NCBI GenBank assembly: GCA_046329105.1
Contig: JAXLVH010000007.1
Span: 128,515-192,514, forward strand
DNA: 64,000 nucleotides
Source of the DNA: Flavobacteriales bacterium
GTDB taxonomy: Bacteria > Bacteroidota > Bacteroidia > Flavobacteriales_F > PHOS-HE28
Reading direction: 5' to 3'
Below the pieces are notes generated by a model, which worked only from the letters and a program-made list of their open reading frames with translations, was not told the DNA's origin and ran no database searches. Position numbers and translations under genes: made by a program. Positions 2 to 55,410 of the stretch are shown piece after piece; the stretch's first letter is position 1, and every line of letters starts with the position of its first letter.

Positions 2-1219
2 TGGCCCGGATCGGCCGAAGCACTGGCGCAAGCTGGCGTACTGCCCATTCCGACCAGCAGGACCGAGGCGTGGAAGTACACCCGCGTGGGAAGACTGTTC
101 GATCAGCCGTTTGCGAAGGCGAATGGCCATGCGACGGTGGTGCTTCCGGACCGGCTTCCATTCGCGGCCACGCGCGTGGTCTTCGTGAACGGCCACTTCC
201 GGGCCGACCTCAGCGATGAACTGAAGGTCCAGCGTGGCCTGGTGATCGACAGCTTGATGCGCCACCTCTCGCATGGTCCTGTGCAGGAGAACTACGGCAA
301 GCTGGCCCCCACTGACGATCGCCTCTTCACGGCCATGAACACCGCCGCACCCACGGATGGCATGATCCTGCTGGTGACCCGGGGTGTGAAAGTGGAGAGG
401 CCCATCCACCTCATCCACCTCACCACTGCGGAGCGCCAGCTGGTGCAACCCCGTGACCTGTTCATGCTCCATGATGGTGCGGATGCCGAGGTGATCATCG
501 AACACATCGCGGTGGATGCGCCGGGAGCACTCATCAACAGCGTACGCGAGTGCGTGGTGGGCAAGGGCGCACGACTGACGACACATAAGCTTCAGCGCGA
601 GGGACACCGCACGACAGCGGGAGGTCCTGTGAGCATCAACTTTGACGGGGTGCGCGTGGGCAGCAGGGGGCACTTCAGTTCGAGCACCACGACGCTTGAT
701 GGCGCGTTGGTCCGGAACGATGTGAACGTGGTGCTGGCCGGGCCCGGAGCGCACGCCGAACTGAACGGTGTATACCTGTTGAACGGTACCGCGCATTGCG
801 ACAATCACACGTACATCGGACATGATGTACCGGATTGCACCAGCGACGAGCTCTACAAGGGCATCGTGACGGAGAAGGCCACCGGCGTGTTCAACGGCAA
901 GGTGTACGTGGCGCCCGATGCCCAACGCACCCGGGCGTACCAGAACAACGCCAACATCCTGTTGGGCGACAACGCCAAGGTGTACACCAAGCCCGAGTTG
1001 GAGATCTACGCGGACGATGTGAAGTGCAGCCACGGTTGCACCATCGGCCGCCTGGATGAGAAGGGCCTGTTCTACCTGCGTTCGCGCGGGGTGAGCGAGG
1101 TGGAAGCGCGCCGCATGCTCGCGCACGCGTTCATGACCGATGTGATCGAGCGCATCGCGAACCAGGACTGGCGAGCGCACCTTGCGAACATCATCGATGC
1201 GAAATTGGAAACGCTGTGA
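2..1219 (+). CDS. sufD: Fe-S cluster assembly protein SufD (5' end outside window)
   Basis: The frame stays open back to position 2 and reads ...LPIPTSRTEAWKYT..., the conserved SufD N-terminal motif. The ORF-track start at 86 is an internal Met. The stop overlaps the sufS start (GTGA). Confidence 0.9.
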   Translation, partial: WPGSAEALAQAGVLPIPTSRTEAWKYTRVGRLFDQPFAKANGHATVVLPDRLPFAATRVVFVNGHFRADLSDELKVQRGLVIDSLMRHLSHGPVQENYGKLAPTDDRLFTAMNTAAPTDGMILLVTRGVKVERPIHLIHLTTAERQLVQPRDLFMLHDGADAEVIIEHIAVDAPGALINSVRECVVGKGARLTTHKLQREGHRTTAGGPVSINFDGVRVGSRGHFSSSTTTLDGALVRNDVNVVLAGPGAHAELNGVYLLNGTAHCDNHTYIGHDVPDCTSDELYKGIVTEKATGVFNGKVYVAPDAQRTRAYQNNANILLGDNAKVYTKPELEIYADDVKCSHGCTIGRLDEKGLFYLRSRGVSEVEARRMLAHAFMTDVIERIANQDWRAHLANIIDAKLETL

Positions 1220-7613: not shown

Positions 7614-10247
7614 ATGAGCATCCTCTTCCGCTCCCTCCTCACCTGCTTTGTGCTGGCGGCCACGCTGCCCTCCTTGGCCACGCACAACGAAGCGGGCGAG
7701 ATCCTGGTTTGCCACCTCGGGGGCCTGGAATACGAGGTCACCATCGTTACGCATACGAACCCGAACTCCCAGGCCGACCGGCCGGAATTCGTGATCGAGT
7801 GGGGCGACGGGGAGTTGGATACCGTGCCCCGCCTGTCCGATACGATCCTCACCTTCGGCTCGGTGCAGGTGAAGCGGAACCTCTATGTGGCCACACACAC
7901 CTACGCTGCGGCCGGGGTGTACACCCTGCAGTACATCGATCCGAACCGTGTGGCGGGCATCATGAACATTGAGGGATCGGTGGACATCCCGATGTGCGTG
8001 CAGTCGCAGATCATCGTAACGGCTGCCCTGAACGACTGCCTGCCGCGCTTCCTGAACGCACCGATCCAGTTGGCATGCATTTACCAGCCCTGGATCCACA
8101 ATCCGGCGGCCTACGATGAGGATGGTGATAGTCTTTCGTATGAGCCGGTGATCTGCCTCGGGCCGGATGGTGATGACCCGAACAGCCTTGGGGATCCCAT
8201 CAGCAACTACCTCTACCCTGACCAGTACATGCCGGGGCCGGGCAATCAGTACTCGATGGATCCGGTCACGGGCACCATCACGTGGGATTCACCCCCCATG
8301 CAAGGCTGGTACAATATCGCCTTCATCGTGCGCGAGTGGCGTGATGGGGCGATGATCGGCTGGGTGGAGCGCGATATGCTCATCATCGTGGTGTCCCCGT
8401 GCGCGAATGAACCACCGGAATTGGGTGAAATGATCGATACCTGTGTGGTCGCTGGAACACCGCTCACCTTCCCGGTCTCCGCCACCGATCCGGACTTCGG
8501 ACAGGTGATCACCCTTCAAGCATTCGGAGGACCCTTGGTGGTCGACCAGAGCCCTGCGGTCTTCACCACCAATCCGGGCACCAGCCCCGTTTCGGGCACG
8601 TTCGCATGGAATACGCAGTGCGCCCATGTCCGCCAGCAACCCTGGCAGGTCACGTTCAGCGTATACGACAACTACAACCCGTCGCTCTATGATTTCGGGG
8701 CCGCGTATGTGACCGTGGTAGCGCCGGCCCCACTGAACCCTTCGGCCACACCGGACGGCAGCATCATGCATCTGGCCTGGGACCCGGACGCGTGTTCCAA
8801 CGCCATTGGATACCGCATTTACAGGAGACAACAGTTGTACGGGTTCAGCCCCGACCACTGCGAGACCGGTGTGCCCGGCTACACCGGTTACACCCTCATC
8901 AGCACCACCACGGGCTGGGGAAGCACCACGTACGATGACCATGACCTGTCCTTCGGGGTAACCTACTGTTACATGGTGACCGCCATTTTCGCGGACCTCG
9001 CCGAGAGTTACGCCAGCGTGGAGTTCTGCAATATGCTCGAACGGGACGTGCCCATCCTGACACATGTGAGCGTGGGCGCCACGGATGTGATCGCCGGTAT
9101 CGATACCGTTCGTTGGAGCAACGCCTGGGACCTGGACACCGTGCAGCATCCGGGCCCGTACCACTTCAAGTTGTTCGTGGGCGATGGTTTCACATCGGCG
9201 AGCACCCTGCTGTACACGAGCGGCCCTTCACCCTTCCTCCAGCATCCGGACACCAGCTACCTGCATACGGGCATCAACACGGTGAACGGAGCACATGCCT
9301 ACCGCGTTGAATTGTACGGTGCGAACGACACTTTCATCGGCAGTGGCAACACCGCCTCCTCGGTCTTCCTGGTGCCGGAACCGAACGATGAAGCGGTGAC
9401 CCTCCACGCGCAGCACAGCACACCTTGGATCAACACGCTGTACGAATACTACCGGGAGACCTCCCCGGACGTGTTCACCCTCGTGGGCACCGGTACCACG
9501 GGCACGTACGTGGACACCGGCCTGGTGAACGGACAGGAATACTGCTGGTACGTGCGCACCACGGGAGCCTACAGCGACCCGTCCATCGTAGCACCGCTCC
9601 TCAACTTCAGCCAGATCGTGTGCGCCAGCCCGGTGGACCTGACACCGCCTTGCCCGCCCACGGTGAGCCTGGACAACGATTGCGAGACACCGCTGAACTC
9701 GCTCACTTGGAACAACCCGAACGAGAGTTGCGCCGACGACACGTACCAGTACCACATCTGGTTCACGCCCTCGTTCGATGAGCCGTTGCAGGTGATCGCC
9801 ACGCTGATCGGCGCGGAGAACACCTTTTACCAGCATACCGACGGACAGAGCGTGGCCGGCTGCTATGCCGTTTCAGCGATCGATACCGTAGGCAACGAAA
9901 GCCTGTTGAGCGATACGGTGTGCGGCGACAATTGCCCGACATACGAACTGCCCAACGTATTCTCGCCCAACAGCGACGGAACGAACGACCTCTTCGTCCC
10001 TTTCCCCTACCGTGGTGTGAAAGAGATCGACCTGCACATCTACAACCGTTGGGGCCAGCTCGTGTTCACCAGTACCGATCCGGACATCGAGTGGCCAGGC
10101 ACCTACAAGAACGCCGGTGAGCCGGTGCCCGATGGTGTGTATTACTACACCTGCGATGTGATGTTACGACGCCTGGCCGGTGACGAACCGCTCCGCTTGA
10201 AGGGCTACGTGCATGTGCTGCGCGGCAACCAGGCCCGTATCAACTGA
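7614..10247 (+). CDS. large secreted protein with gliding-motility-associated / T9SS type B C-terminal domain
   Basis: Signal peptide MSILFRSLLTCFVLAATLPSLA. The C-terminus YELPNVFSPNSDGTNDLFVPFPYRGVKEIDLHIYNRWGQLVF matches the CHU_C type B sorting domain. Confidence 0.8.
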   Translation: MSILFRSLLTCFVLAATLPSLATHNEAGEILVCHLGGLEYEVTIVTHTNPNSQADRPEFVIEWGDGELDTVPRLSDTILTFGSVQVKRNLYVATHTYAAAGVYTLQYIDPNRVAGIMNIEGSVDIPMCVQSQIIVTAALNDCLPRFLNAPIQLACIYQPWIHNPAAYDEDGDSLSYEPVICLGPDGDDPNSLGDPISNYLYPDQYMPGPGNQYSMDPVTGTITWDSPPMQGWYNIAFIVREWRDGAMIGWVERDMLIIVVSPCANEPPELGEMIDTCVVAGTPLTFPVSATDPDFGQVITLQAFGGPLVVDQSPAVFTTNPGTSPVSGTFAWNTQCAHVRQQPWQVTFSVYDNYNPSLYDFGAAYVTVVAPAPLNPSATPDGSIMHLAWDPDACSNAIGYRIYRRQQLYGFSPDHCETGVPGYTGYTLISTTTGWGSTTYDDHDLSFGVTYCYMVTAIFADLAESYASVEFCNMLERDVPILTHVSVGATDVIAGIDTVRWSNAWDLDTVQHPGPYHFKLFVGDGFTSASTLLYTSGPSPFLQHPDTSYLHTGINTVNGAHAYRVELYGANDTFIGSGNTASSVFLVPEPNDEAVTLHAQHSTPWINTLYEYYRETSPDVFTLVGTGTTGTYVDTGLVNGQEYCWYVRTTGAYSDPSIVAPLLNFSQIVCASPVDLTPPCPPTVSLDNDCETPLNSLTWNNPNESCADDTYQYHIWFTPSFDEPLQVIATLIGAENTFYQHTDGQSVAGCYAVSAIDTVGNESLLSDTVCGDNCPTYELPNVFSPNSDGTNDLFVPFPYRGVKEIDLHIYNRWGQLVFTSTDPDIEWPGTYKNAGEPVPDGVYYYTCDVMLRRLAGDEPLRLKGYVHVLRGNQARIN

Positions 10248-35250: not shown

Positions 35251-35337
35251 GGCACGCACCTCTCCAGCCTGTTGCGGAGCCAGCGTCGCGATCAGGATGC
35301 CATACAAACTCCTGATATCTAACAACATATCTCTCAT

Positions 35338-35374
35338 CCCTGCATTTTTACAATAGAATTATAAATTTGCAGGG
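35338..35374 (+). promoter_or_regulatory. 37-nt palindromic element CCCTGCA-N23-TGCAGGG abutting the ATPase ATG; contains a Bacteroidetes-type -7 motif TAAATTTG
   Basis: Read directly from the sequence. TAnnTTTG is the Bacteroidetes sigma-A -7 consensus, implying a leaderless transcript. Confidence 0.4.
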
Positions 35375-36553
35375 ATGGCACACAATCCCTTGATAGACAG
35401 AGGGCTTCTTGTCGTTGTACTGGACCGACTGCACCACTTCCCCGCAGCAGCCATTCTGGGCCCCCGGCAAATCGGCAAGACCACACTCGCACGCATGGTG
35501 GCGGAGCGCGTTGGCAGGCCGGTGTTGTGGCTCGATCTGGAGCGCCCTTCGGATCGCGCTCTCCTGACGGATCCGTACGCCTACCTGCCGCAACATGCCG
35601 ACAAATTGGTAGTGATCGACGAGGTGCAGCGCATGCCCGAGGTGTTCCAGGCGCTTCGCGTGCTGATCGACGAGCGCCGCCGCCCGGGGCGCTTCCTGCT
35701 GTTGGGCTCCTCATCGCCCGAGATCGTGCGCCGCGCTGCCGAATCGCTGGCAGGCCGCATCGCATACATGGACCTCTATCCGCTCAACATGCTGGAAGTC
35801 GGCATGGACCACGCACATGACCTGTGGCTGCGTGGTGGTTACCCCGATGCCTTCCTGGCCCCTTCGAACGGACAGGCGGCCCATGTGCAGCTGGCCATTC
35901 TACGTTCGTTGGTGGAGCGCGATCTGCCCCAACTCGGCCTACCCGCCGCGCCGGAGGTCACGTTCACGCTCCTGCGCATGCTGGCATCGGTGCATGGCCA
36001 GCCGCTCAACATGAGCATGCTGGCCAAGTCCATGGGCCTCACGGTGAGCACCGTGCGTACCTACATCGAATTCTTCGCGCAGGCGTACATCGTTTTCCGC
36101 TTGTACAGCCACCACACCAACACGCGCAAGCGGATCACCAAGGCGCCTAAACTGTACATCACCGACAGCGGCCTGCTGCATGCGCTGCTCAACATCACGG
36201 AATTGGACCAGCTCCGCGCCACGGCCCTCATCGGGCTTTCGTGGGAGGGCTTCGTGGTGCAACAGGTACGAGCGTGGGTGGGCGGCAGGGCCGAACTGCA
36301 CTACTTCCGCACACAGGACGGGGCCGAGCTCGACCTGGTGATCACCCAGGGCACGCGGCCCATGGCGGCCATCGAGATCAAGACCACCGATGCTCCCACC
36401 TTGAGTCGCGGCAACCGCTTCGCCTTTGATGCGGTGGGCGCTCCCGTTGCGCTGATCTGCACACCAACTGCGCAGGACCATGCGCATGGCGGCGGGGTCC
36501 AGGTGTGCTCCTTGGGCACGCTGTGGGCGCATCTGGACCAGGCGCTGCGGTGA
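35375..36553 (+). CDS. AAA+ ATPase with DUF4143 C-terminal domain (AAA_14 family)
   Basis: Walker A GPRQIGKTT, Walker B VVIDEVQ, and a DUF4143-like C-terminal half. Host-like GC. Confidence 0.8.
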   Translation: MAHNPLIDRGLLVVVLDRLHHFPAAAILGPRQIGKTTLARMVAERVGRPVLWLDLERPSDRALLTDPYAYLPQHADKLVVIDEVQRMPEVFQALRVLIDERRRPGRFLLLGSSSPEIVRRAAESLAGRIAYMDLYPLNMLEVGMDHAHDLWLRGGYPDAFLAPSNGQAAHVQLAILRSLVERDLPQLGLPAAPEVTFTLLRMLASVHGQPLNMSMLAKSMGLTVSTVRTYIEFFAQAYIVFRLYSHHTNTRKRITKAPKLYITDSGLLHALLNITELDQLRATALIGLSWEGFVVQQVRAWVGGRAELHYFRTQDGAELDLVITQGTRPMAAIEIKTTDAPTLSRGNRFAFDAVGAPVALICTPTAQDHAHGGGVQVCSLGTLWAHLDQALR

Positions 36554-36663
36554 TGGTCCTCCCGCGCGACTTGGCGCAGCACCGTGCAGGCGGCTATATT
36601 GGCGGCTGGGTTCGTAAAAGGCACACCCGTTCGGCGGATGAACGAAGATCTACGTCGATTCAA

Positions 36664-37736
36664 CGTTAGCCGCAATTAAAACAGACCATGAGTGTTGAGA
36701 TAACTTTATATACTAAAAAATCAACCAAGACGGGATTGATAAAATTTCTGTCAGCAAATAATTTTAAGAAAGCTAGACATTTCATTGATGAGATGAACAC
36801 GCCTGAGAGGATTGGTTTTATGTGGTTTGAATATGACAACTATGAATCAACAACTGGTGTGGAGGCAACAGTAATAAAAATATCAGAGGAAGATAGATAT
36901 AAATATAATTGCTCTGATTGGATATTACACACAAGAACACGAGCCAGTGGGTCATTTGAGGATAAACAGAAGCAGAATGAAATAATAAAAACTGCAAGAC
37001 AGCAATTTGGAGGAACATTATACAACGATTGGTACGGAACAAATAAATATACCAATTTAGATGACTACAGGAAGTTTTCTGCACTTGAAAAGGGTATATC
37101 AATTATAGCCAACGGTTCTTTGGAGAAACTCTCACAAATAAGAAATTGCCTAAATGATTATAGGAACGAAATGTCAGAGACCCTGGCAAACATAAAACCA
37201 GAAAGTATGCGAACAATGCTTGTTTCAATAGACCCAAGTATTGTTCTTTACAACAGTTTAATGCCTTTTCTAGTTTCTGTAATTGAATATTTTTTCGGAC
37301 AAATCTTTGCAAATTATATAAAATACCATGAATCTTCAAGGCGTATGTTAGCCGAAGAAAAAGTAAAGATTGAAATATCAGACGTTATAAGCATCTTAAA
37401 AAGTGAAGATTCCCTTGAACAAATTGTGATGAAGTCTTACAATTTTCAAAATCTTGACTCAATCAACAAAGCATTCAAAAAATACACCTCCATTGATATC
37501 AACGAAACTTTAAGTCAAAAGAAGAAAGTTAGCGGAAAGATAATTAGGGTTTTGACAAACCTAGAGGCCATATTGAACGCAAGACATAAGTTTGTTCACG
37601 AACTTGACATTGATTACTGTTTATCCAAAGAAAAATATTTAGTCAATGTTTCAACGGTGGAAAAGGCGATAGAGTTGACTATTCAACGAATTAAGAAAGA
37701 TGGATTGAATATTGAAATTGAACACTAGCAGCGGCT
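36664..37736 (+). mobile_element. AT-rich (~33% GC) single-gene cassette bracketed by 9-bp inverted repeat GTTAGCCGC / GCGGCTAAC
   Basis: The compositional break against ~66% GC flanks is sharp. The inverted repeat lies 16 bp upstream of the ORF start and overlaps its stop codon. Confidence 0.55.
36688..37728 (+). CDS. hypothetical 346-aa protein with C-terminal HEPN-like motif (Rx4H: NARHKFVHE)
   Basis: Foreign AT-rich codon usage. The Rx4-6H motif near the C-terminus is the HEPN RNase catalytic signature seen in Abi-type proteins. The N-terminal ~250 aa match no family. Confidence 0.5.
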   Translation: MSVEITLYTKKSTKTGLIKFLSANNFKKARHFIDEMNTPERIGFMWFEYDNYESTTGVEATVIKISEEDRYKYNCSDWILHTRTRASGSFEDKQKQNEIIKTARQQFGGTLYNDWYGTNKYTNLDDYRKFSALEKGISIIANGSLEKLSQIRNCLNDYRNEMSETLANIKPESMRTMLVSIDPSIVLYNSLMPFLVSVIEYFFGQIFANYIKYHESSRRMLAEEKVKIEISDVISILKSEDSLEQIVMKSYNFQNLDSINKAFKKYTSIDINETLSQKKKVSGKIIRVLTNLEAILNARHKFVHELDIDYCLSKEKYLVNVSTVEKAIELTIQRIKKDGLNIEIEH

Positions 37737-38070
37737 AACACGGTTTTTGCGTCAGGAGGGCTGACGTGCAATCTTGGAACTTTGTGCTCCGAAACCCGCC
37801 CGAACACAAAGCCCGAAACCGTTAGCGGCACCCCTTCGGAAAGGCAATGAGGTTCGGCACGCACAACGCGGGCACCCCTGCATAGCACATGAATGGCGGA
37901 CTCCCCTGGGCGGCAAGGATCATCGGCAGGGGTGCGTTCGCCCAGGCCGGGATCGAGGTTCCGGTGGAGGCCGATCCGGTCGTTGCTGGAATGCCTCCGA
38001 TCGGGCGCGATCATTCCGAAGCGCATCTGCTTGCGTGATCCGACCCGTCCCGCCGTCCCGCGTTGATCCC

Positions 38071-38367
38071 ATGAACCTCTCCCTCCTCTTCGCCCGCCGC
38101 TACCTCCTGGCCAAACGGAGTACCAACGCGGTGAACATCATCACGGTGATCAGCATCACGGTGGTGGCGGTGGTCACGGCGGCCATGGCGGTGGTGCTCA
38201 TCACCCTCAACGGCATCAGCGCACTGGTGGACAAGTTGTACAGTCCCTTCGATCAGGATGTCACCATCACCTTGCGGGAAGGGAAAACATACCCGCGTGA
38301 TAGCCTGCCGCTGATCGGATCGCAAAGCCGTAACAATGGCGTTTGGAACGTTCAAGAAACTGGCTGA
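38071..38367 (+). pseudogene. N-terminal fragment (98 aa) of a LolC/LolE/FtsX-family ABC permease
   Basis: MNLSLLFARRYLLAKRSTNAVNIITVISITVVAVVTAAMAVVL matches the LolC/E N-terminus and first TM. The ORF stops after 98 codons and does not continue in any frame. Confidence 0.6.
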
Positions 38368-38444
38368 TCGCTTCCGTCGGATCGATCCGGCCGAGAGCGT
38401 ATCCCAGGTACGGTGGGGCCGGATCTTCCCCATGGCCTCAGTAT

Positions 38445-38605
38445 TATTGCAATAGACCTCCGTCCCAATTGCTCAGGGGAATGAAAAAGACTTGTCACGG
38501 TGAGCCTGCCGAACCGGTCCTTGCTTCGCCGTAGCGGCTACGCAAAGGCGCGGTCGATGGGCTCACCGTGACATTCAATAGGAATTACGACGGAGGTCGA
38601 ATGAA
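38445..38605. repeat. palindromic dispersed repeat (R1 family, copy A): TGTCACGGTGAGCC...GGCTCACCGTGACA nested inside outer inverted repeat GACCTCCGTC/GACGGAGGTC
   Basis: Perfect 14-bp inverted repeat. The internal segment GCGCCTTTGCGTAGCCGCTACGGCG is homologous to the tails of copies B and D. Confidence 0.7.
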
Positions 38606-38807
38606 GTAACCATATACCCATGGGCCATTTGTGCCAGAACGGTCGGGAATGGAACGATGCATAACTTTGATCATGCGCGAACAAGGGCCACCACATTGCG
38701 AATGATCCAGGACCCCCCCGGCTCCATCCCCCGATCCGGCAGGCCCGCTCCACGCCGACCACTACACACGACGTGATGCCATGCGGAACCAACGGCCCGG
38801 CCACCTG

Positions 38808-40718: not shown

Positions 40719-40877
40719 TCAGGGCTTGATGCCCACCAGCTTGCCGTCCTGGATCACCCACACCTTGGTGCCATGCATCTTGGCAATGCGACGGGCCTCC
40801 TTCGCGGCCCGTTTGAGGGCCTTCGTGACCGCGTCCACAAATTCGTCCGACTGCTTCTTTGCGGATGTTTTACTCAT
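40719..40877 (-). CDS. 52-aa hypothetical protein translationally coupled to the zeta-toxin-like gene
   Basis: MSKTSAKKQSDEFVDAVTKALKRAAKEARRIAKMHGTKVWVIQDGKLVGIKP. Its ATG overlaps the upstream gene's stop (ATGA). It is below the ORF-track size cutoff. Confidence 0.5.
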   Translation of the reverse strand: MSKTSAKKQSDEFVDAVTKALKRAAKEARRIAKMHGTKVWVIQDGKLVGIKP

Positions 40878-41398
40878 GGGTGTCGCTCAAGTAGTAAGGG
40901 AACAGGACCGGAGTTCTCATACACCGCCCAAACATCAGCAAGCGGGCGATAGAGCGCCGCGAAGTTAGGCCATCCGCGTTCGTAGCGTCTACGCACATCG
41001 GCATCCGGCACATGGTGCCCACCATGCTTCACCCGGTGGGCTACACGTCTGATCGCCAGTTCTGCGGACTCCAGCCGAAGGAAGACGATCTCGATGCGGT
41101 AACCATTGTCCTTCATGCGTCGAAGCAGATCCACGTAGGTACGGCCGCTCAGCGTGGATTCCAGCGCGAACGATTCACCTTTTCTGGTCAACCGCTCCAG
41201 TTCCGACAACAACAAGCGACCAGCCGCGCGAGCAGCGAGTTCAGGGTGCAACGGAGAGAGGCCCGAGGCGATCAGGTCCGCATTCACGAAGTGCAGAACA
41301 CCCTCTGCCTCAGTAAGGAACTGACGTGCGAAGGTGGTCTTCCCCGCCCCGTTCGGACCGGCAATGATGATGCACCGGGGTGAAGTGCGCTTCTTCAT
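40874..41398 (-). CDS. zeta-toxin-family P-loop kinase (AAA/UDP-GlcNAc kinase-like)
   Basis: Walker A IIIAGPNGAGKTT near the N-terminus and ~170 aa size typical of zeta toxin domain proteins. Confidence 0.7.
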   Translation of the reverse strand: MKKRTSPRCIIIAGPNGAGKTTFARQFLTEAEGVLHFVNADLIASGLSPLHPELAARAAGRLLLSELERLTRKGESFALESTLSGRTYVDLLRRMKDNGYRIEIVFLRLESAELAIRRVAHRVKHGGHHVPDADVRRRYERGWPNFAALYRPLADVWAVYENSGPVPLLLERHP

Positions 41399-41724
41399 CG
41401 GGCCGTCAACGTGGCCTGACCACCGCATGCCAAGCTCGCGAAGATCAACGTAACTTCGGCTTTCATGGGTTCCCTGTTCCCTGTTCCCTGTTCCCTGTTC
41501 CCTGTTCCGGTTCCAAGCAGCAGATCATCTACGCTCATTCGATAAAGACCTGCCAGCTTGATGGCCCGTTCCGCGCTCAGTTTCACATGCGCGCTTTCCA
41601 ACTCGCTATATGCGGACTGCCCGATGGCCAGCACCTCGGCCAGATCCTCCTGGCTCAGGCCATGTGCCGAACGCAACTCCAGCAAGCGAAGAGCGATGCG
41701 CTTCTGTTCGCGACGATGCTCCAT
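41395..41724 (-). CDS. XRE-family helix-turn-helix protein (putative antitoxin/regulator) with repeat-encoded C-terminal tail
   Basis: HTH LSQEDLAEVLAIGQSAYSELES. The C-terminus GTGNREQGTGNREQGTGNREP is encoded by the heptamer tract. The start is uncertain (Met at 41724 or 41763). Confidence 0.55.
   Translation of the reverse strand: MEHRREQKRIALRLLELRSAHGLSQEDLAEVLAIGQSAYSELESAHVKLSAERAIKLAGLYRMSVDDLLLGTGTGNREQGTGNREPMKAEVTLIFASLACGGQATLTAR
41470..41504. repeat. heptanucleotide tandem repeat (TTCCCTG)x5
   Basis: Five perfect 7-nt units, read directly. They lie inside the 3' coding tail of the HTH gene, ~70 nt upstream of the toxin start. Confidence 0.9.
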
Positions 41725-41832
41725 GAAGCACGAAAGTATACCAGCAACACGCAATATCGGCATTGCCAATGACGATCCGCCGCTTGTTGCTCGAACATTC
41801 GCTCTCACCCTCAAATGGACGAACTTCATGGC

Positions 41833-42309
41833 ATGAGAACGATGATCGGTTTCGCTTGCGCAGCACTGTTGCTGGCAGGTTGTCAGAAAGAAGAGCCTGC
41901 CTCGGACAAAACCAATGTTGTGGCGAACGAGAGTGGCGATAGGGCCATCAAGCTGCGCACGATGGTCTGCGGCGGATGTGACCAGGATGGACACGATTGC
42001 GATTGGTGCGAGTGCGGCGGAGTCCCTTCCAATTGCTTACCGGACGTCATTGTCACCCGGCTTCACAAGCCTGCGGTGGATGAGGTCATCACGGCCATCC
42101 GATCCGGGGATCAGTCCAGTATCAAAACCGCATTCTCGGCGAACGCTTCTGTGCTGGCCCACTACCTGATCGTATCGGATATCGATGCGGTGATCACTGG
42201 CGACGCCTTGGCAACTTCGGAACCCCGCAGCCATGGTGAGCGCTTCATAGTCATTAGCGACCTCCACGATGCCGTCATTTCGGCGTATCCACTTTATGAG
42301 GAGGAATAG
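41833..42309 (+). CDS. hypothetical Cys-rich lipoprotein
   Basis: Lipobox LLLAGCQ and a CGGCDQDGHDCDWCECGG segment. Confidence 0.5.
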   Translation: MRTMIGFACAALLLAGCQKEEPASDKTNVVANESGDRAIKLRTMVCGGCDQDGHDCDWCECGGVPSNCLPDVIVTRLHKPAVDEVITAIRSGDQSSIKTAFSANASVLAHYLIVSDIDAVITGDALATSEPRSHGERFIVISDLHDAVISAYPLYEEE

Positions 42310-42408
42310 ATGGCCGAAGATCCATGCCATCCCTTTTGGCGGGCTGTCCAGCATTGGTCGATATGCCGCAGCCCATGGAGCCAAGGCATAGTTCTTCCTT
42401 CGTGCTAT

Positions 42409-43605
42409 ATGGCTGCATTGGTCGCTGTGATGGTGGCTTTAGGGTCTTGCCGCAGCGCGCCCCCTTCAGAAATAAAACTTGGATGGGGCGATAGCCTTAC
42501 CTACAACACAGGGTTTGCGGTCACCGCTCATCTGAGCGGGCGATGTCCGTGCCCAGACCGTGCGGACAAGAGTGAATGCGTCTATTTCGCCGATGCGGTC
42601 ACTGAGAAGAAAATCGCAATTTTCTCCCTCACAGGATTGTTACTCCAAACCGTCCCACTCGGCGAGGTGCTGAACAACCTCCATCAGATTGATGGTATCA
42701 CTGTGCTGCACCCGGACACCATTGTCATCAACGGAAAGTACAATAACAGGGTCGCCATCATCGACCGGACGGGCCGTTGTTCGGTATTGGCTGACCTTAG
42801 CGAACACATGCGGCGACCTGATGGTTTGACCTACGAACTCTGGACCTCGAATTTCGGCCCATTCGTGCTCGAAAAGCACCTATGCTTCCATGTCTCGCTG
42901 GTCGCCAATTCGATCGGCGGATATTGTGGCCAAGATGCGCCGCGTGTGAATGAAACGTACAGGTATGAATGGCTGGACCGAAACGGCCCCCACTTCGCCT
43001 CCCTCTCATTGGACTCTATAACCGATGGACCACGACTAATATGGGGCCCAACCGAATCGGACAAAGACACCATCCAGAATATCGCGCTGGTGCATCGCCT
43101 CGGATCCTATGCATGCGTCAATGGGCTATGGTTCGCTTTCTCGATCAACAGCCCCGACATCCTCATTCTTGACCCGGTGCGGATGCGCGACGTACGGCGC
43201 ATCCCAGTGCGTTCAGACTTCACCTCCACCTGTCGCGAGCCGGTGATGCTGCCCAAAGGCAAGGTACTCAACCTGCAAGACTCGCTGAATGACAGGCTGT
43301 ACAACGGCGGCTTCATCGAAACCATCCATTTCGATCGACCCAGCCAGCGCTATCTTGTGATTTTGCGCCACCGCGTCATCAAGGAGATCATGGATGGGAA
43401 AGAGCACCGACGCGGGGCCTATACCTTGCAGCAATACGACCGCGACTTCAATTTTATCAATGAAACGCCCATCACCGACAACAAGCACAAATTGCCCTTC
43501 ATGCTCTGTCTCCCGCAAGGCACTTACGTCATCCGTTCCGAGAGCAAACGGGAGAAGATGCGCGGCGTACACATATATGATCGCATCCTGCTTGATGAAC
43601 AATAA
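42409..43605 (+). CDS. hypothetical lipoprotein
   Basis: Lipobox VALGSC at the chosen internal start. No family recognised. Confidence 0.45.
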   Translation: MAALVAVMVALGSCRSAPPSEIKLGWGDSLTYNTGFAVTAHLSGRCPCPDRADKSECVYFADAVTEKKIAIFSLTGLLLQTVPLGEVLNNLHQIDGITVLHPDTIVINGKYNNRVAIIDRTGRCSVLADLSEHMRRPDGLTYELWTSNFGPFVLEKHLCFHVSLVANSIGGYCGQDAPRVNETYRYEWLDRNGPHFASLSLDSITDGPRLIWGPTESDKDTIQNIALVHRLGSYACVNGLWFAFSINSPDILILDPVRMRDVRRIPVRSDFTSTCREPVMLPKGKVLNLQDSLNDRLYNGGFIETIHFDRPSQRYLVILRHRVIKEIMDGKEHRRGAYTLQQYDRDFNFINETPITDNKHKLPFMLCLPQGTYVIRSESKREKMRGVHIYDRILLDEQ

Positions 43606-44089
43606 GACCGTTCCAGCATTCGTACTGCTTTCGGTGGTCGCGGGCTGCCAACACGTGGGCGCGGGCAAGGACAGTGCTACCGAGCAGCTGCGCGGCCTGG
43701 TAGGCCAGTACCGGAACGATGTGCCCATGTCGGGACTGAAATCGATCCTGGTCGTCACTGAAGAAGGATGCCCCGGGTGCAACAAGTCCCTGGCCCGGCT
43801 GGTGGAAGACTACCTGGCCGATACATCAACTCTGGTATGGGTATCCGCCGTGGGGGGCATGGTGGACATCAGCCCCTTCAAAGCCGAGCCGGAACGCGTG
43901 GTTTGGGACTATGGCGATAGTCTGCGGTCCCTCGGGATCATCAAAGGCTCCGGTGCCATCTTTTTGGACTCGGGCAAGATCGATACGGTCATCCAGCTTG
44001 ATGCCCGCAACCTGGGGACCGCGTTGGCGTTGGTTTCCGACCGCCTGAGCACGCCGGCCAACGCTCCGGCGGACAACCCCTCCAGATAG
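43595..44089 (+). CDS. hypothetical lipoprotein with thioredoxin-like CxxC (CPGC)
   Basis: Lipobox VVAGCQ and a CPGC motif. Confidence 0.5.
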   Translation: MNNKTVPAFVLLSVVAGCQHVGAGKDSATEQLRGLVGQYRNDVPMSGLKSILVVTEEGCPGCNKSLARLVEDYLADTSTLVWVSAVGGMVDISPFKAEPERVVWDYGDSLRSLGIIKGSGAIFLDSGKIDTVIQLDARNLGTALALVSDRLSTPANAPADNPSR

Positions 44090-44119: not shown

Positions 44120-44584
44120 TCATTGTTTCCTTCGTTTCAACTCATGCACATCCAGCAGATCCTTCGGACGTGCGCTGCGCACCTTGCTCTCGATCAGGTC
44201 GTCCCGGCCGATCACCCGGTAGCGTGCCAATGGTACCCCGTCCGTTTCGGCGAGTACGCACCGCGACCACGCCTCTTCGAAGGTGCATCCGGGGTTGAAG
44301 CGCGTGATCAATTCGATCTCCTGCTCCGGCGAGATCTTGATCGAAATGTTCTGCTCAGCGGCCAACACCTTCGTCGGGAGCGCGTCGACCTCGTAGCCTA
44401 TGGCCTTCAGCACCGTCAGGAGCCTGTTGAAGTTCTCTGGTGAAGATTCGATCCACAGGTCAATATCGGCTGAATGACGTTTGTAGCCATGGTGATTCAC
44501 CGCCGCGCCTCCGACCATGATGATGCGCAGGCCCTCCCGCTGGGCCAATGAAAGGAACACCTTGACCTCAGCCTCGAACTCCAT
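44120..44584 (-). CDS. nucleotidyltransferase-like protein (putative)
   Basis: GG..N..G..R...DIDLWI is reminiscent of the minimal NTase fold (GS/GG...D.D). Weak call. Confidence 0.35.
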   Translation of the reverse strand: MEFEAEVKVFLSLAQREGLRIIMVGGAAVNHHGYKRHSADIDLWIESSPENFNRLLTVLKAIGYEVDALPTKVLAAEQNISIKISPEQEIELITRFNPGCTFEEAWSRCVLAETDGVPLARYRVIGRDDLIESKVRSARPKDLLDVHELKRRKQ

Positions 44585-44771
44585 CCGCCCGCTTCCAGAT
44601 GATGAAGTTGCCCTTCGCCTCTCCGCGCTCTTCCCGCGTTGGGGGGTTGCGGGTGATCTCGCGCAGATACAGCGCCAAGCGCTCCCACGGTGTCAGCGCC
44701 ATGAACTCCCGCTCGCGCCGGGCGTTGCTCTCCTCCTTCGTCTCAAAACGGATACGGGGATCGGTGCGCAT
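44568..44771 (-). CDS. small hypothetical protein overlapping the start of the NTase-like gene
   Basis: 67-aa ORF with a 17-nt overlap with the downstream gene. No family recognised. Confidence 0.3.
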   Translation of the reverse strand: MRTDPRIRFETKEESNARREREFMALTPWERLALYLREITRNPPTREERGEAKGNFIIWKRADGVRG

Positions 44772-48184: not shown

Positions 48185-48330
48185 GTTGCAGCGCTTCGGC
48201 AGGCTCAGCGTGACAGCTCATCGGGAGTGTTCAAGAAAAGTGCTCTTGGACACTCATGTCCCCACTGTCACGCTGAGCCCGCCGACTGCGCCTATGCGTA
48301 GCCGCTCCGGCGAAGTGAGGAGCGCCATAC
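48185..48330. repeat. palindromic dispersed repeat (R1 family, copy B): GGCTCAGCGTGACAG-N48-CTGTCACGCTGAGCC + tail GCCGACTGCGCCTATGCGTAGCCGCTCCGGCGAAGTGAGGAGCGCC
   Basis: Perfect 15-bp inverted repeat. Roughly 85% identical to copy D. Confidence 0.8.
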
Positions 48331-52177: not shown

Positions 52178-52420
52178 TCAAGGCTCCGCGTCAGCAATGG
52201 CGTGGCCTCATTGAAATCTGCCGAAGCGCTTCGACGGGCTCAGCGTGACATTTCAGGTGCCGCGTCGGCAAGAACGCGACCTCATTGAAACGGTGTGTGG
52301 CGATGTTCCCACGGAACATGGGCTCCACGTCAGCAATCGTATGGCGTCATTGAAACCCGTCGAAGCGGTGAGCTTGCCGAACCGTCGACGGGCTCAGCGT
52401 GACATTTCGGGCTCCACGTC
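52178..52420. repeat. ~139-bp tandem repeat (about 2.1 copies) ending in GGCTCAGCGTGACATTTC
   Basis: Units begin near 52181, 52320 and 52410 (GGGCTCCACGTCAGCAAT...CATTGAAA...CGACGGGCTCAGCGTGACATTTC). They share the R1 core GGCTCAGCGTGACA. Confidence 0.7.
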
Positions 52421-54953: not shown

Positions 54954-55085
54954 GGCCGGCGGACTTCACGGTTCGGTGGGCTCGCCGCGACACGCCTTTG
55001 TGATCATCCAGGGCGATCGGCATGGAGAAGCATCCAATGAACGCCCCGCGGGATATCGGCGGGGCGTTCGCGTTCACCTGCTTCC
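54954..55085. repeat. ~131-bp direct repeat, copy 1 (duplicate of arsC 3'-flank/terminator)
   Basis: About 88% identical to 55423..55553. Contains a strong hairpin GAACGCCCCGC-gggatatcg-GCGGGGCGTTC. Confidence 0.8.
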
Positions 55086-55274: not shown

Positions 55275-55410
55275 TCAGGGCAGGCTCGCTCAGCGTGACA
55301 GTTCATAGGGAGTAATAGAACAGTGCTCGTGGACACCCATGACCCCACTGTCACGCTGAGCCGGCCGACTGCGCCTATGCGTAGCCGCTCCGGCGATGCG
55401 AGGAGCGCTA
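55275..55410. repeat. palindromic dispersed repeat (R1 family, copy D)
   Basis: GGCTCGCTCAGCGTGACAG-N45-CTGTCACGCTGAGCC + GGCCGACTGCGCCTATGCGTAGCCGCTCCGGCGATGCGAGGAGCGC. Confidence 0.8.

Follow-up and report, generated by a model that had tools for sequence, protein, structure and literature searches.

Single attC sites lacking an integron integrase, named SALINs in the IntegronFinder nomenclature, have been proposed to arise when cassettes insert at secondary genomic sites by attC x attG recombination, a route with a GWT target consensus that has been shown experimentally (Loot et al., 10.1101/2022.09.11.507474). The RiboL-PSP-HEPN family (PF18735) was described by Anantharaman et al. in 2013, in a work that also defines an "Integron cassette HEPN" family from Gammaproteobacteria (PDB 3jrt; PMC3710099), and single-gene HEPN anti-phage cassettes (Taranis/AbiJ-like, Esos) have been described in the chromosomal integron of Vibrio cholerae (Darracq et al., 10.1101/2024.07.02.601686). 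The present analysis concerns an AT-rich open reading frame (ORF) and its borders in a 64-kb stretch of contig JAXLVH010000007.1 (positions 128,515 to 192,514, hereafter the window), which belongs to a Bacteroidota metagenome-assembled genome (MAG) from a Flavobacteriales-like activated-sludge bacterium. Based on its boundaries, its composition and its counterparts in cassette arrays, the segment 36666-37821 of the window is read here as one integron gene cassette, isolated in the manner of a SALIN, which would encode a latent single-protein HEPN RNase. We assign this reading a probability of about 0.6.

Probable cassette boundaries and attC site

The ORF differs markedly in composition from its surroundings, with a GC content of 0.327 in a window of 0.611 and between flanks of 0.61-0.66 (0.64 for the ATPase gene on its 5' side, 0.66 for the spacer on its 3' side). 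A preliminary description of this DNA had presented it as a horizontally acquired gene of 346 amino acids (aa) and ~33% GC, bracketed by an inverted repeat with a third near-copy; each of these points was borne out, with corrections of 1-5 nt to the repeat coordinates, and the foreign gene would be a cassette in the literal sense. The 9-mer GTTAGCCGC at the left border and its reverse complement GCGGCTAAC, located 2 nt past the stop codon, are complementary at 9/9 positions, and GTTAGCGGC lies ~90 nt beyond GCGGCTAAC. No other exact copy of any of the three was found in the whole window, and the pattern with one mismatch was not enriched (19 observed vs. 26 expected), so that the meaning of these 9-mers lies in their position rather than in their count.

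In integron cassettes, the recombination point lies between the G and the TT of the R' box, and the 5' end of a cassette complements its own R'' box; the attC is an imperfect palindrome (R''-L''...L'-R') of ~55-150 nt. Here, TTAGCCGC, which follows the G of the left border, is the perfect complement of the R'' box of the same cassette, and these boundaries (5' G|TTRRRY, attC with R'' and R') explain both the mobility of the element and its contrast in GC content (Table 1). The third variable position of the 5' box is C and not a purine, as is also the case in related Bacteroidota cassettes. In the bottom-strand fold of the attC site the R box is paired at 8/9 positions, the L stem has 5 bp, and a 2-nt bulge lies on the '' arm, the arm on which canonical attC sites carry their extrahelical bases. 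The cassette has no promoter of its own, no TAnnTTTG box being present between the ATPase gene and the ORF.

The same arrangement was observed around homologous genes. In a subset of homologue loci a GTTAGCC(G/A)C box lies 19-23 nt before the ATG, and its exact complement G(C/T)GGCTAAC lies 2 nt past the stop codon (7 nt in L028). Both boxes were detected in the window, L006, L010/L015 (Saccharicrinis), L018 (Christiangramia), L048 and L049-L052, and degenerate versions in L016, L019 and L047. In L018 and L006 the homologue belongs to a series of small ORFs, all on one strand and spaced by repeats of 120-200 nt, where the 5' end of every unit (after G|TT) complements the box behind its own ORF, forming a chain of box pairs (GTTAGCCAC/GTGGCTAAC, GTTGTAAAC/GTTTACAAC, GTTAGGCAC/GTGCCTAAC, and onward). 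Such a chain is the classical hallmark of integron cassettes. Moreover, L028, a gammaproteobacterial MAG, contains a complete integron in which a homologue of 31% identity occupies the second cassette position, its boxes being complementary over 12 nt. The IntI of this integron is divergently oriented and adjacent to the cassettes (449.6 bits on TIGR02249, cut-off 265), and the attC sites (at 9889, 11069, 11571 and 12313) are canonical, of the form GCCTAAC ... GTTAGGC, where the spacers measure 5/6 nt and L'' contains an additional base.

Direct counterparts of the attC site were found in the arrays L049/L051, which carry the homologue P0007 (79% identity). The attC of P0007 is identical to window positions 37731-37821 at 84/91 positions (92%) and ends as that of the window does (...CCCGAAACC-GTTAGCGG), the window site showing a 37-nt internal deletion relative to it. 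The upstream cassette, the HEPN ORF and the attC are identical between L049 and L051, which split right after G|TTA and continue into different downstream cassettes, indicating a cassette exchange at exactly the predicted crossover point. The window cassette itself appeared as a mosaic: its ORF is nearest to that of L047 (91-95% nucleotide identity), its attC is of the L049 type, and the attC of L047 starts differently (GGCAATATGGCG...), as in L006 and L048. Two unrelated attC types would thus serve one ORF family.

Two home-made attC scanners were also applied. The local-stem version recovered 3/4 of the array attC sites in L028, 9/11 in L018 and 5 in L006; the window site was not above background in this scanner, which misses hybrid R boxes. 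Some genuine array attC sites scored no better than the window site on the ad hoc stem score. Since structure scores do not discriminate, the attC call rests on positional and sequence homology to the array sites. To our knowledge, Rfam holds no attC family, and an Rfam scan of 34-40 kb returned nothing relevant; its lone sub-threshold match, to mir-657 (38673-38757, minus strand; 30.6 bits vs. a gathering threshold of 69, E 0.0055), is almost certainly a chance hairpin.

Two further candidates were rejected. The segment 36589-36673 (GCGGCTATA...GTTAGCCGC) was considered as a degenerate upstream attC, with the ATPase gene as its cassette, yet it folds no better than shuffled sequences (z +0.5), corresponds to conserved host intergenic DNA in L045, and no GTT box precedes the ATPase gene. 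The segment 37822-38066 was considered as a second, ORF-less cassette (9-bp stem CAACGCGGG/CCCGCGTTG), and was discarded because no complementarity exists between its R'' and the TTAGCGGC start.

Table 1. Positions in the window of the putative cassette, its parts and the adjoining features.
Feature	Position	Strand	Remarks
AAA_14/DUF4143 ATPase, neighbour and not partner	35375..36553	+	PADLOC candidate PDC-S01
Left flank, ancestral host intergenic DNA	36571..36665	+	36583-36626 vs. L045, 77%, E 2e-4
5' cassette boundary G|TTAGCCGC	36665..36673	+	exact 9-mer GTTAGCCGC; crossover between 36665 and 36666
Putative integron gene cassette, 1156 bp, 35% GC	36666..37821	+	22-nt 5' untranslated region, one ORF and attC
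346-aa ORF, ATG..TAG, two-domain protein	36688..37728	+	intact
N-terminal alpha/beta domain, aa 1-128	36688..37071	+	no Pfam family
HEPN domain, RiboL-PSP-HEPN type, ~aa 155-335	37150..37692	+	end-to-end Pfam profile match
Rx4H catalytic motif R299-H300-K-F-V-H304	37582..37599	+	NARHKFVHE = aa 297-305
attC, 99 nt, 58% GC	37731..37829	+	crossover after G37821; branched variable region between L'' and L'
attC, R'' box GCGGCTAAC	37731..37739	+	
attC, L'' box GGTTT	37742..37746	+	
attC, L' box AAACC	37816..37820	+	
attC, R' box GTTAGCGGC	37821..37829	+	
Right flank, GC-rich (66%) non-coding spacer	37822..38070	+	starts TTAGCGGC
LolC/E-type permease remnant, 3'-truncated	38071..38367	+	only aa 1-81 homologous; TIGR02212, E 5e-8

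Probable insertion site

No tyrosine recombinase was found among the 353 window ORFs of >=80 aa (phmmer, five divergent queries including the IntI of L028), no integrase is present within +-10 kb of the cassette in conspecific contigs, and the 64-kb window contains no second attC, no cluster of attC-like sites and no recombinase pseudogene. On the left side, a 44-nt segment (Table 1) aligns with DNA located 3' of the methyltransferase gene in the closest relative, L045, in which the ATPase gene is absent from this position. This match indicates that the ATPase gene (~35256-36570, host-like GC) is a separate accessory insertion, and that the left flank of the cassette is ancestral host DNA. The absence of a recombinase from the 64 kb, together with this ancestral flank, characterizes the cassette as isolated and SALIN-like. 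On the right side, neither relatives nor other cassette arrays gave a match to the spacer.

According to the proposed mechanism, a circular cassette from a low-GC Bacteroidota pool would have been inserted by an integron-type recombinase, no longer nearby, into a GTT-containing secondary site (...CAACG|TTAGCGGC...) through the attC x attG route. The empty form expected at this locus is ...CGATTCAACGTTAGCGGCACC... / ...GATTCAACGTTAGCGGCACC... All conspecific contigs (20+) carry the cassette, the region being identical among them save for a single-nucleotide polymorphism outside the cassette or runs of N, and a slightly divergent strain (L046) also carries it at the same site. In addition, a few substitutions were observed in L046 (~100-120, reverse strand), including R83T at a family-invariant residue, and this allele may be inactivated. 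N-terminally truncated ORFs annotated in some contigs (302 and 127 aa) were dismissed as differences between gene callers, the DNA being identical.

Domain architecture of the encoded protein

The AlphaFold2 model built from 41 homologues (predicted local distance difference test, pLDDT, 91.8) showed a protein of HEPN fold, with the four-helix up-and-down bundle of the superfamily, as had been suspected from the C-terminal sequence NARHKFVHE. The reading of this sequence as an Rx4H HEPN motif was likewise upheld: R299, H300 and H304 are invariant in the 41 sequences, as is the glutamate E200, within the HEPN region's first half. The score of the window protein against HEPN_RiboL-PSP (PF18735) was 21.3 bits, below the cut-off of 28.4, and 32/41 relatives matched this family at E<=1e-3 (best 2e-8); the window protein is best described, from these profile scores, as part of a related clade of RiboL-PSP-HEPN and not as a curated member. 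Neither a fusion to endoribonuclease L-PSP nor an operon with ParB was found for it.

With the HEPN domain in place, the part without assignment is shorter than the N-terminal ~250 aa initially said to match nothing, and comprises ~aa 1-128. This N-terminal domain, which was modelled alone with a pLDDT of 92, had no match in Pfam, NCBIfam, PHROG or PADLOC, and a BFVD structure search returned nothing significant. Its invariant residues include S54, G57, V58, E59, T82, R83, D92, Q96, N97, N113, D114, G117 and N119. A profile search with this domain against 1.84 billion representatives (50% identity) resulted in 184 clusters, nearly all of 330-360 aa and with the domain at the N-terminus; among the distant members of about full length (330-365 aa) that were retested, 4/7 gave a weak RiboL-PSP HEPN match. 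The N-terminal domain, found almost only with this HEPN domain, thus appears to be wedded to it.

Adjacent ATPase and permease genes

The gene directly upstream of the cassette was confirmed to encode an ATPase with AAA_14 and DUF4143 domains behind a palindrome (35335-35377), which in addition contains a Bacteroidetes-type -7 box (TAAATTTG, 35362-35369) located 5 nt before the ATPase ATG. The ORF starts 134 nt past the ATPase gene on the same strand, with no predicted plus-strand terminator between them. The -7 box and the lack of a terminator make co-transcription plausible, and the cassette ORF would probably be expressed by read-through from the ATPase promoter; such a link would be accidental and not that of a conserved system. 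The preliminary description had also allowed for a two-gene module. As a defence system, such a module would have the DUF4143 ATPase as sensor and the HEPN protein as executor. The adjacency on one strand would fit such a system, as would the match of the ATPase to the PADLOC candidate PDC-S01 (1e-83), but a DUF4143 ATPase was present in 0/33 non-conspecific homologue loci (8-10 kb searched), and the two genes differ in GC content (64% vs. 33%) and in their insertion boundaries, with the cassette boundary between them, making this explanation highly improbable.

The LolC/E-type permease stub downstream of the cassette was also confirmed (Table 1). It shows 73% identity to aa 1-81 of a 405-aa permease in L044, after which the alignment stops, and neither other pieces of the permease nor dus was found in the window. 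In L044 (methyltransferase 81% identical) the gene order is ABC transporter, rbfA, methyltransferase, 13 nt, 405-aa LolC/E-type permease and dus, and a full permease of 405-409 aa follows the methyltransferase gene in both L043 and L044. Relatives hold an intact lolC/E, and no empty site was found. The notion that the insertion disrupted lolC/E had to be abandoned: the cassette lies 250 bp 5' of the intact start codon of the stub, and the loss affects the far 3' end, after ~aa 81, which faces away from the cassette and adjoins a repetitive extragenic palindromic (REP)-like element.

The palindromic repeat at 38493-38573, already noted before, proved to have further copies in the window. These GC-rich palindromes of REP-like type share the core TGTCACG(C/G)TGAGCC (9 matches vs. 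0.9 expected) and were located at 38493-38573, 48196-48285, 52237-52404, 54979-54992 and 55283-55366, the first of them just past the lolC/E truncation and within a larger inverted repeat (GACCTCCGTC ... GACGGAGGTC, ~38456-38598).

In this lineage, insertions concentrate in the short gap between the methyltransferase gene and lolC/E, a hotspot that contains the ATPase gene and the cassette in the window (35256-38070), an insertion sequence (IS) element (HTH_Tnp_1; 1743-2697) in L045, whose methyltransferase is 93% identical, and an additional gene of 268 aa (8063-8869) in L043. More generally, the region from the methyltransferase gene to dxs has the character of an accessory island. Two probable toxin-antitoxin pairs are located 3' of queG, one at 40874-41724 (zeta-toxin/AAA_33 and HTH_3) and the other at 44120-44771 (a DUF6036/AbiEii-like nucleotidyltransferase and a 67-aa partner). 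Three same-strand genes at 41815-44089 (164, 431 and 164 aa; GC 52-57%) had no Pfam or PADLOC match, and this block varies between strains, since genes of 155 and 391 aa are found in the conspecific L002.

Homologues and their genomic context

A homologue search in 5.8 billion proteins (90% identity) yielded 94 clusters, nearly all of 340-350 aa and with identities of 34-100%. The protein family is widespread and previously uncharacterised, and no published test of it was found by literature and accession-based searches. Neither the window protein nor three of its homologues matched any PADLOC 2.0.0 model, and a fourth homologue, that of L018, matched a Type IIG enzyme model weakly and in part (E 0.0013). 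No homologue was detected in the plasmid collection.

No conserved partner gene was found across the homologue loci. The upstream genes vary, including a 163-aa unknown ORF, a protein kinase, an IS91 transposase, an AAA_15/21 ATPase, AHSA1 cassettes and a dehydrogenase. Genes related to conflict and mobility were found near homologues (type I and other restriction-modification (R-M) systems, HipA, PIN, caspase, integrases and IS elements). Of the two kinds of neighbourhood that were to be checked, the proximity to DUF4143 ATPases was thus not found, and the proximity to defence-related loci was, in the form of R-M, toxin-antitoxin and mobility genes.

A distant homologue (33% identity, 340 aa, RHxxxH kept) was found in Escherichia phage 500465-2 (L053, 7001-8023) and also in L054 and L055. 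In E. coli this gene (WP_021293365), whose annotation is hypothetical, is flanked by gpD and ogr, with hok/gef next to it, and is carried by P2-like prophages or their remnants near flk/fabB in 65/5426 complete E. coli genomes. We know of no P2 hotspot at the gpD-ogr position. The existence of this prophage homologue makes phage-challenge and toxicity tests straightforward.

In L018 (7925-9082, Christiangramia sp.) and L010 (2758-4200, Saccharicrinis sp.), Xer-like tyrosine recombinases, 42% identical to each other, were observed with the Bacteroidota cassette arrays directly 3' of them and on the same strand. These recombinases score 193 bits on TIGR02249 (cut-off 265) and, in pairwise alignment with a true IntI, do not contain the ~40-residue IntI-specific insertion; together with their arrays they may represent a non-canonical type of integron.

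Proposed function and alternative explanations

A latent HEPN RNase is proposed here because integron cassettes are known to carry compact anti-phage genes, single-gene HEPN systems among them. The protein would be self-contained and normally latent, with the N-terminal domain either restraining the HEPN domain as a regulator or selecting its RNA target; after a trigger such as phage infection or stress, RNA would be cleaved and the cell arrested. The cassette probably amounts to an anti-phage or toxin module of a single gene, our best guess being a single-protein abortive-infection RNase. The view of the gene as a single-gene defence or abortive-infection candidate, put forward earlier, is reasonable in the light of its context, given the R-M systems and prophages around homologues and the lack of a conserved neighbour.

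Several observations weigh against this interpretation, some of them concerning the cassette and others its function. The attC site is weak by structure, with an L stem of 5 bp and fold z-scores of -1.1 (bottom strand) and -2.3 (top strand), and on an ad hoc measure 52/1888 (2.8%) of the AAC...GTT pairs in the window match its stem score. Having lost 37 nt, the site may be decayed and perhaps non-recombinogenic. The predicted empty junction was absent from JGI (Joint Genome Institute) metagenomes as an exact 26-mer, and the insertion event is one that we infer. Moreover, the 7 nt past the crossover, TTAGCGG (37822-37828), are identical in array L049 (9171-9177), where the sequences then diverge. 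This identity is not predicted for a random GWT target: either the recombinase favoured an R'-box-like target, or, as a less probable option, an array fragment was transferred by a different route.

The latter option leads to the alternative that a decayed integron or array (attC sites clustered without an integron integrase, CALIN) has left its last trace at this locus, or that an array fragment was acquired here by homologous or illegitimate recombination. The R'-box-like start of the right flank (TTAGCGGC), with its 7 nt shared with the next-cassette start in L049, would be accounted for in this way, the 250-bp right spacer is unmatched in relatives, and the site is a rearrangement hotspot, as the IS of L045, the additional gene of L043 and the window's truncated lolC/E show. 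However, the host DNA is ancestral up to ~20 nt left of the crossover, the 64 kb hold no second attC and no recombinase gene or pseudogene, and the TTAGCGGC start, unlike that of a true next cassette, finds no complement in the candidate stem at 37862-38066. We consider this origin rather doubtful, and the insertion of a single cassette is retained as the preferred reading.

With regard to function, the ORF may not be expressed in the host genome, and no PADLOC or PHROG match speaks for a defence role. Of the two halves of the protein, the one with the N-terminal domain shows the higher conservation (mean column identity 67% vs. 60%, with 16 invariant, mostly polar residues), which exceeds what is usual for sensor domains. 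The same figures would suit a protein whose enzymatic activity lies in the N-terminal domain, the HEPN domain being inert or serving for binding only; such a division of roles appears quite improbable. In addition, no antitoxin is present in the cassette, and a defence role is something we infer.

Instead of a phage-triggered defence, the gene could also encode a dormancy RNase induced by stress, or act as a selfish element of the toxin or addiction type, thereby inducing dormancy or stabilising arrays. Integron arrays are rich in toxin-antitoxin cassettes (10.1101/2024.07.02.601686), a dormancy hypothesis has been formulated for HEPN proteins in integrons (PMC3710099), and the locus, identical in all sampled strains from several countries, has been stably kept. 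Nevertheless, this explanation is considered unlikely: an antitoxin gene is neither contained in the cassette nor conserved beside it, the fixed two-domain architecture suggests intramolecular control, and the prophage and R-M neighbourhoods favour defence.

Beyond the preferred reading of an isolated cassette with a latent HEPN RNase, a broader and tentative possibility is that the whole family constitutes an unrecognised single-protein abortive-infection system, in which a new, conserved and enzyme-like N-terminal domain would control a RiboL-PSP-type HEPN. Integron cassettes might carry it through at least 7-8 phyla, and in E. coli P2-like prophages it would be a moron, with the Bacteroidota cassettes perhaps moved by Xer-like recombinases of a non-canonical integron.

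An AT-rich island without an explanation thus becomes an event that can be read mechanistically. The locus offers a case, natural and open to dating, in which an integron cassette has escaped to a chromosomal place outside any integron, in a phylum in which integrons are little studied, and it points to a compact, widespread and uncharacterised family with the hallmarks of conflict systems. Two tempting inferences, namely the ATPase as a partner and the disruption of the permease by the insertion, are removed.

Comparison with known systems

With respect to SALINs and attG insertions, the locus shares the G|TT crossover at both ends, a 5' end that complements its own R'' box, and the composition of a promoterless ORF plus attC. 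It also shares the lack of a nearby integrase or att site, and a location in host intergenic DNA, 3' of an expressed gene. It differs in its host, a Bacteroidota MAG, whereas the experiments were carried out in E. coli with IntI1-3; in its attC, which is shortened and structurally weak; and in its target, which is R'-box-like over 8 nt and not just GWT. Furthermore, Bacteroidota arrays of homologous cassettes adjoin Xer-like recombinases that lack the IntI-specific insertion.

The protein shares with the RiboL-PSP-HEPN family the end-to-end match over aa 155-335, the Rx4H motif and the helical HEPN fold, but it falls below the Pfam cut-off, has no L-PSP/RidA domain and no ParB operon, and carries a new N-terminal domain. 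The layout resembles that of RnlA/LsoA (RNase LS), although there is no sequence similarity and one N-terminal domain is present instead of two; an antitoxin of the RnlB/LsoB type was not found, either as a second ORF in the cassette or as a conserved neighbour.

The single-gene HEPN cassettes of Vibrio are similar in being small one-gene cassettes, found in and outside integrons, that combine a HEPN effector with an N-terminus of variable or unknown kind. No sequence relationship to them is detectable, no protein from Vibrio was among the 94 and 184 clusters, and Abi_C was not matched; the Vibrio systems are phage-tested, whereas the window gene is known as a sequence. The "Integron cassette HEPN" family (PDB 3jrt) likewise shares a HEPN domain encoded in an integron cassette. 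Thus, both the vehicle (an integron cassette, as a SALIN) and the effector class (HEPN) are already known, and it is the N-terminal domain that is new.

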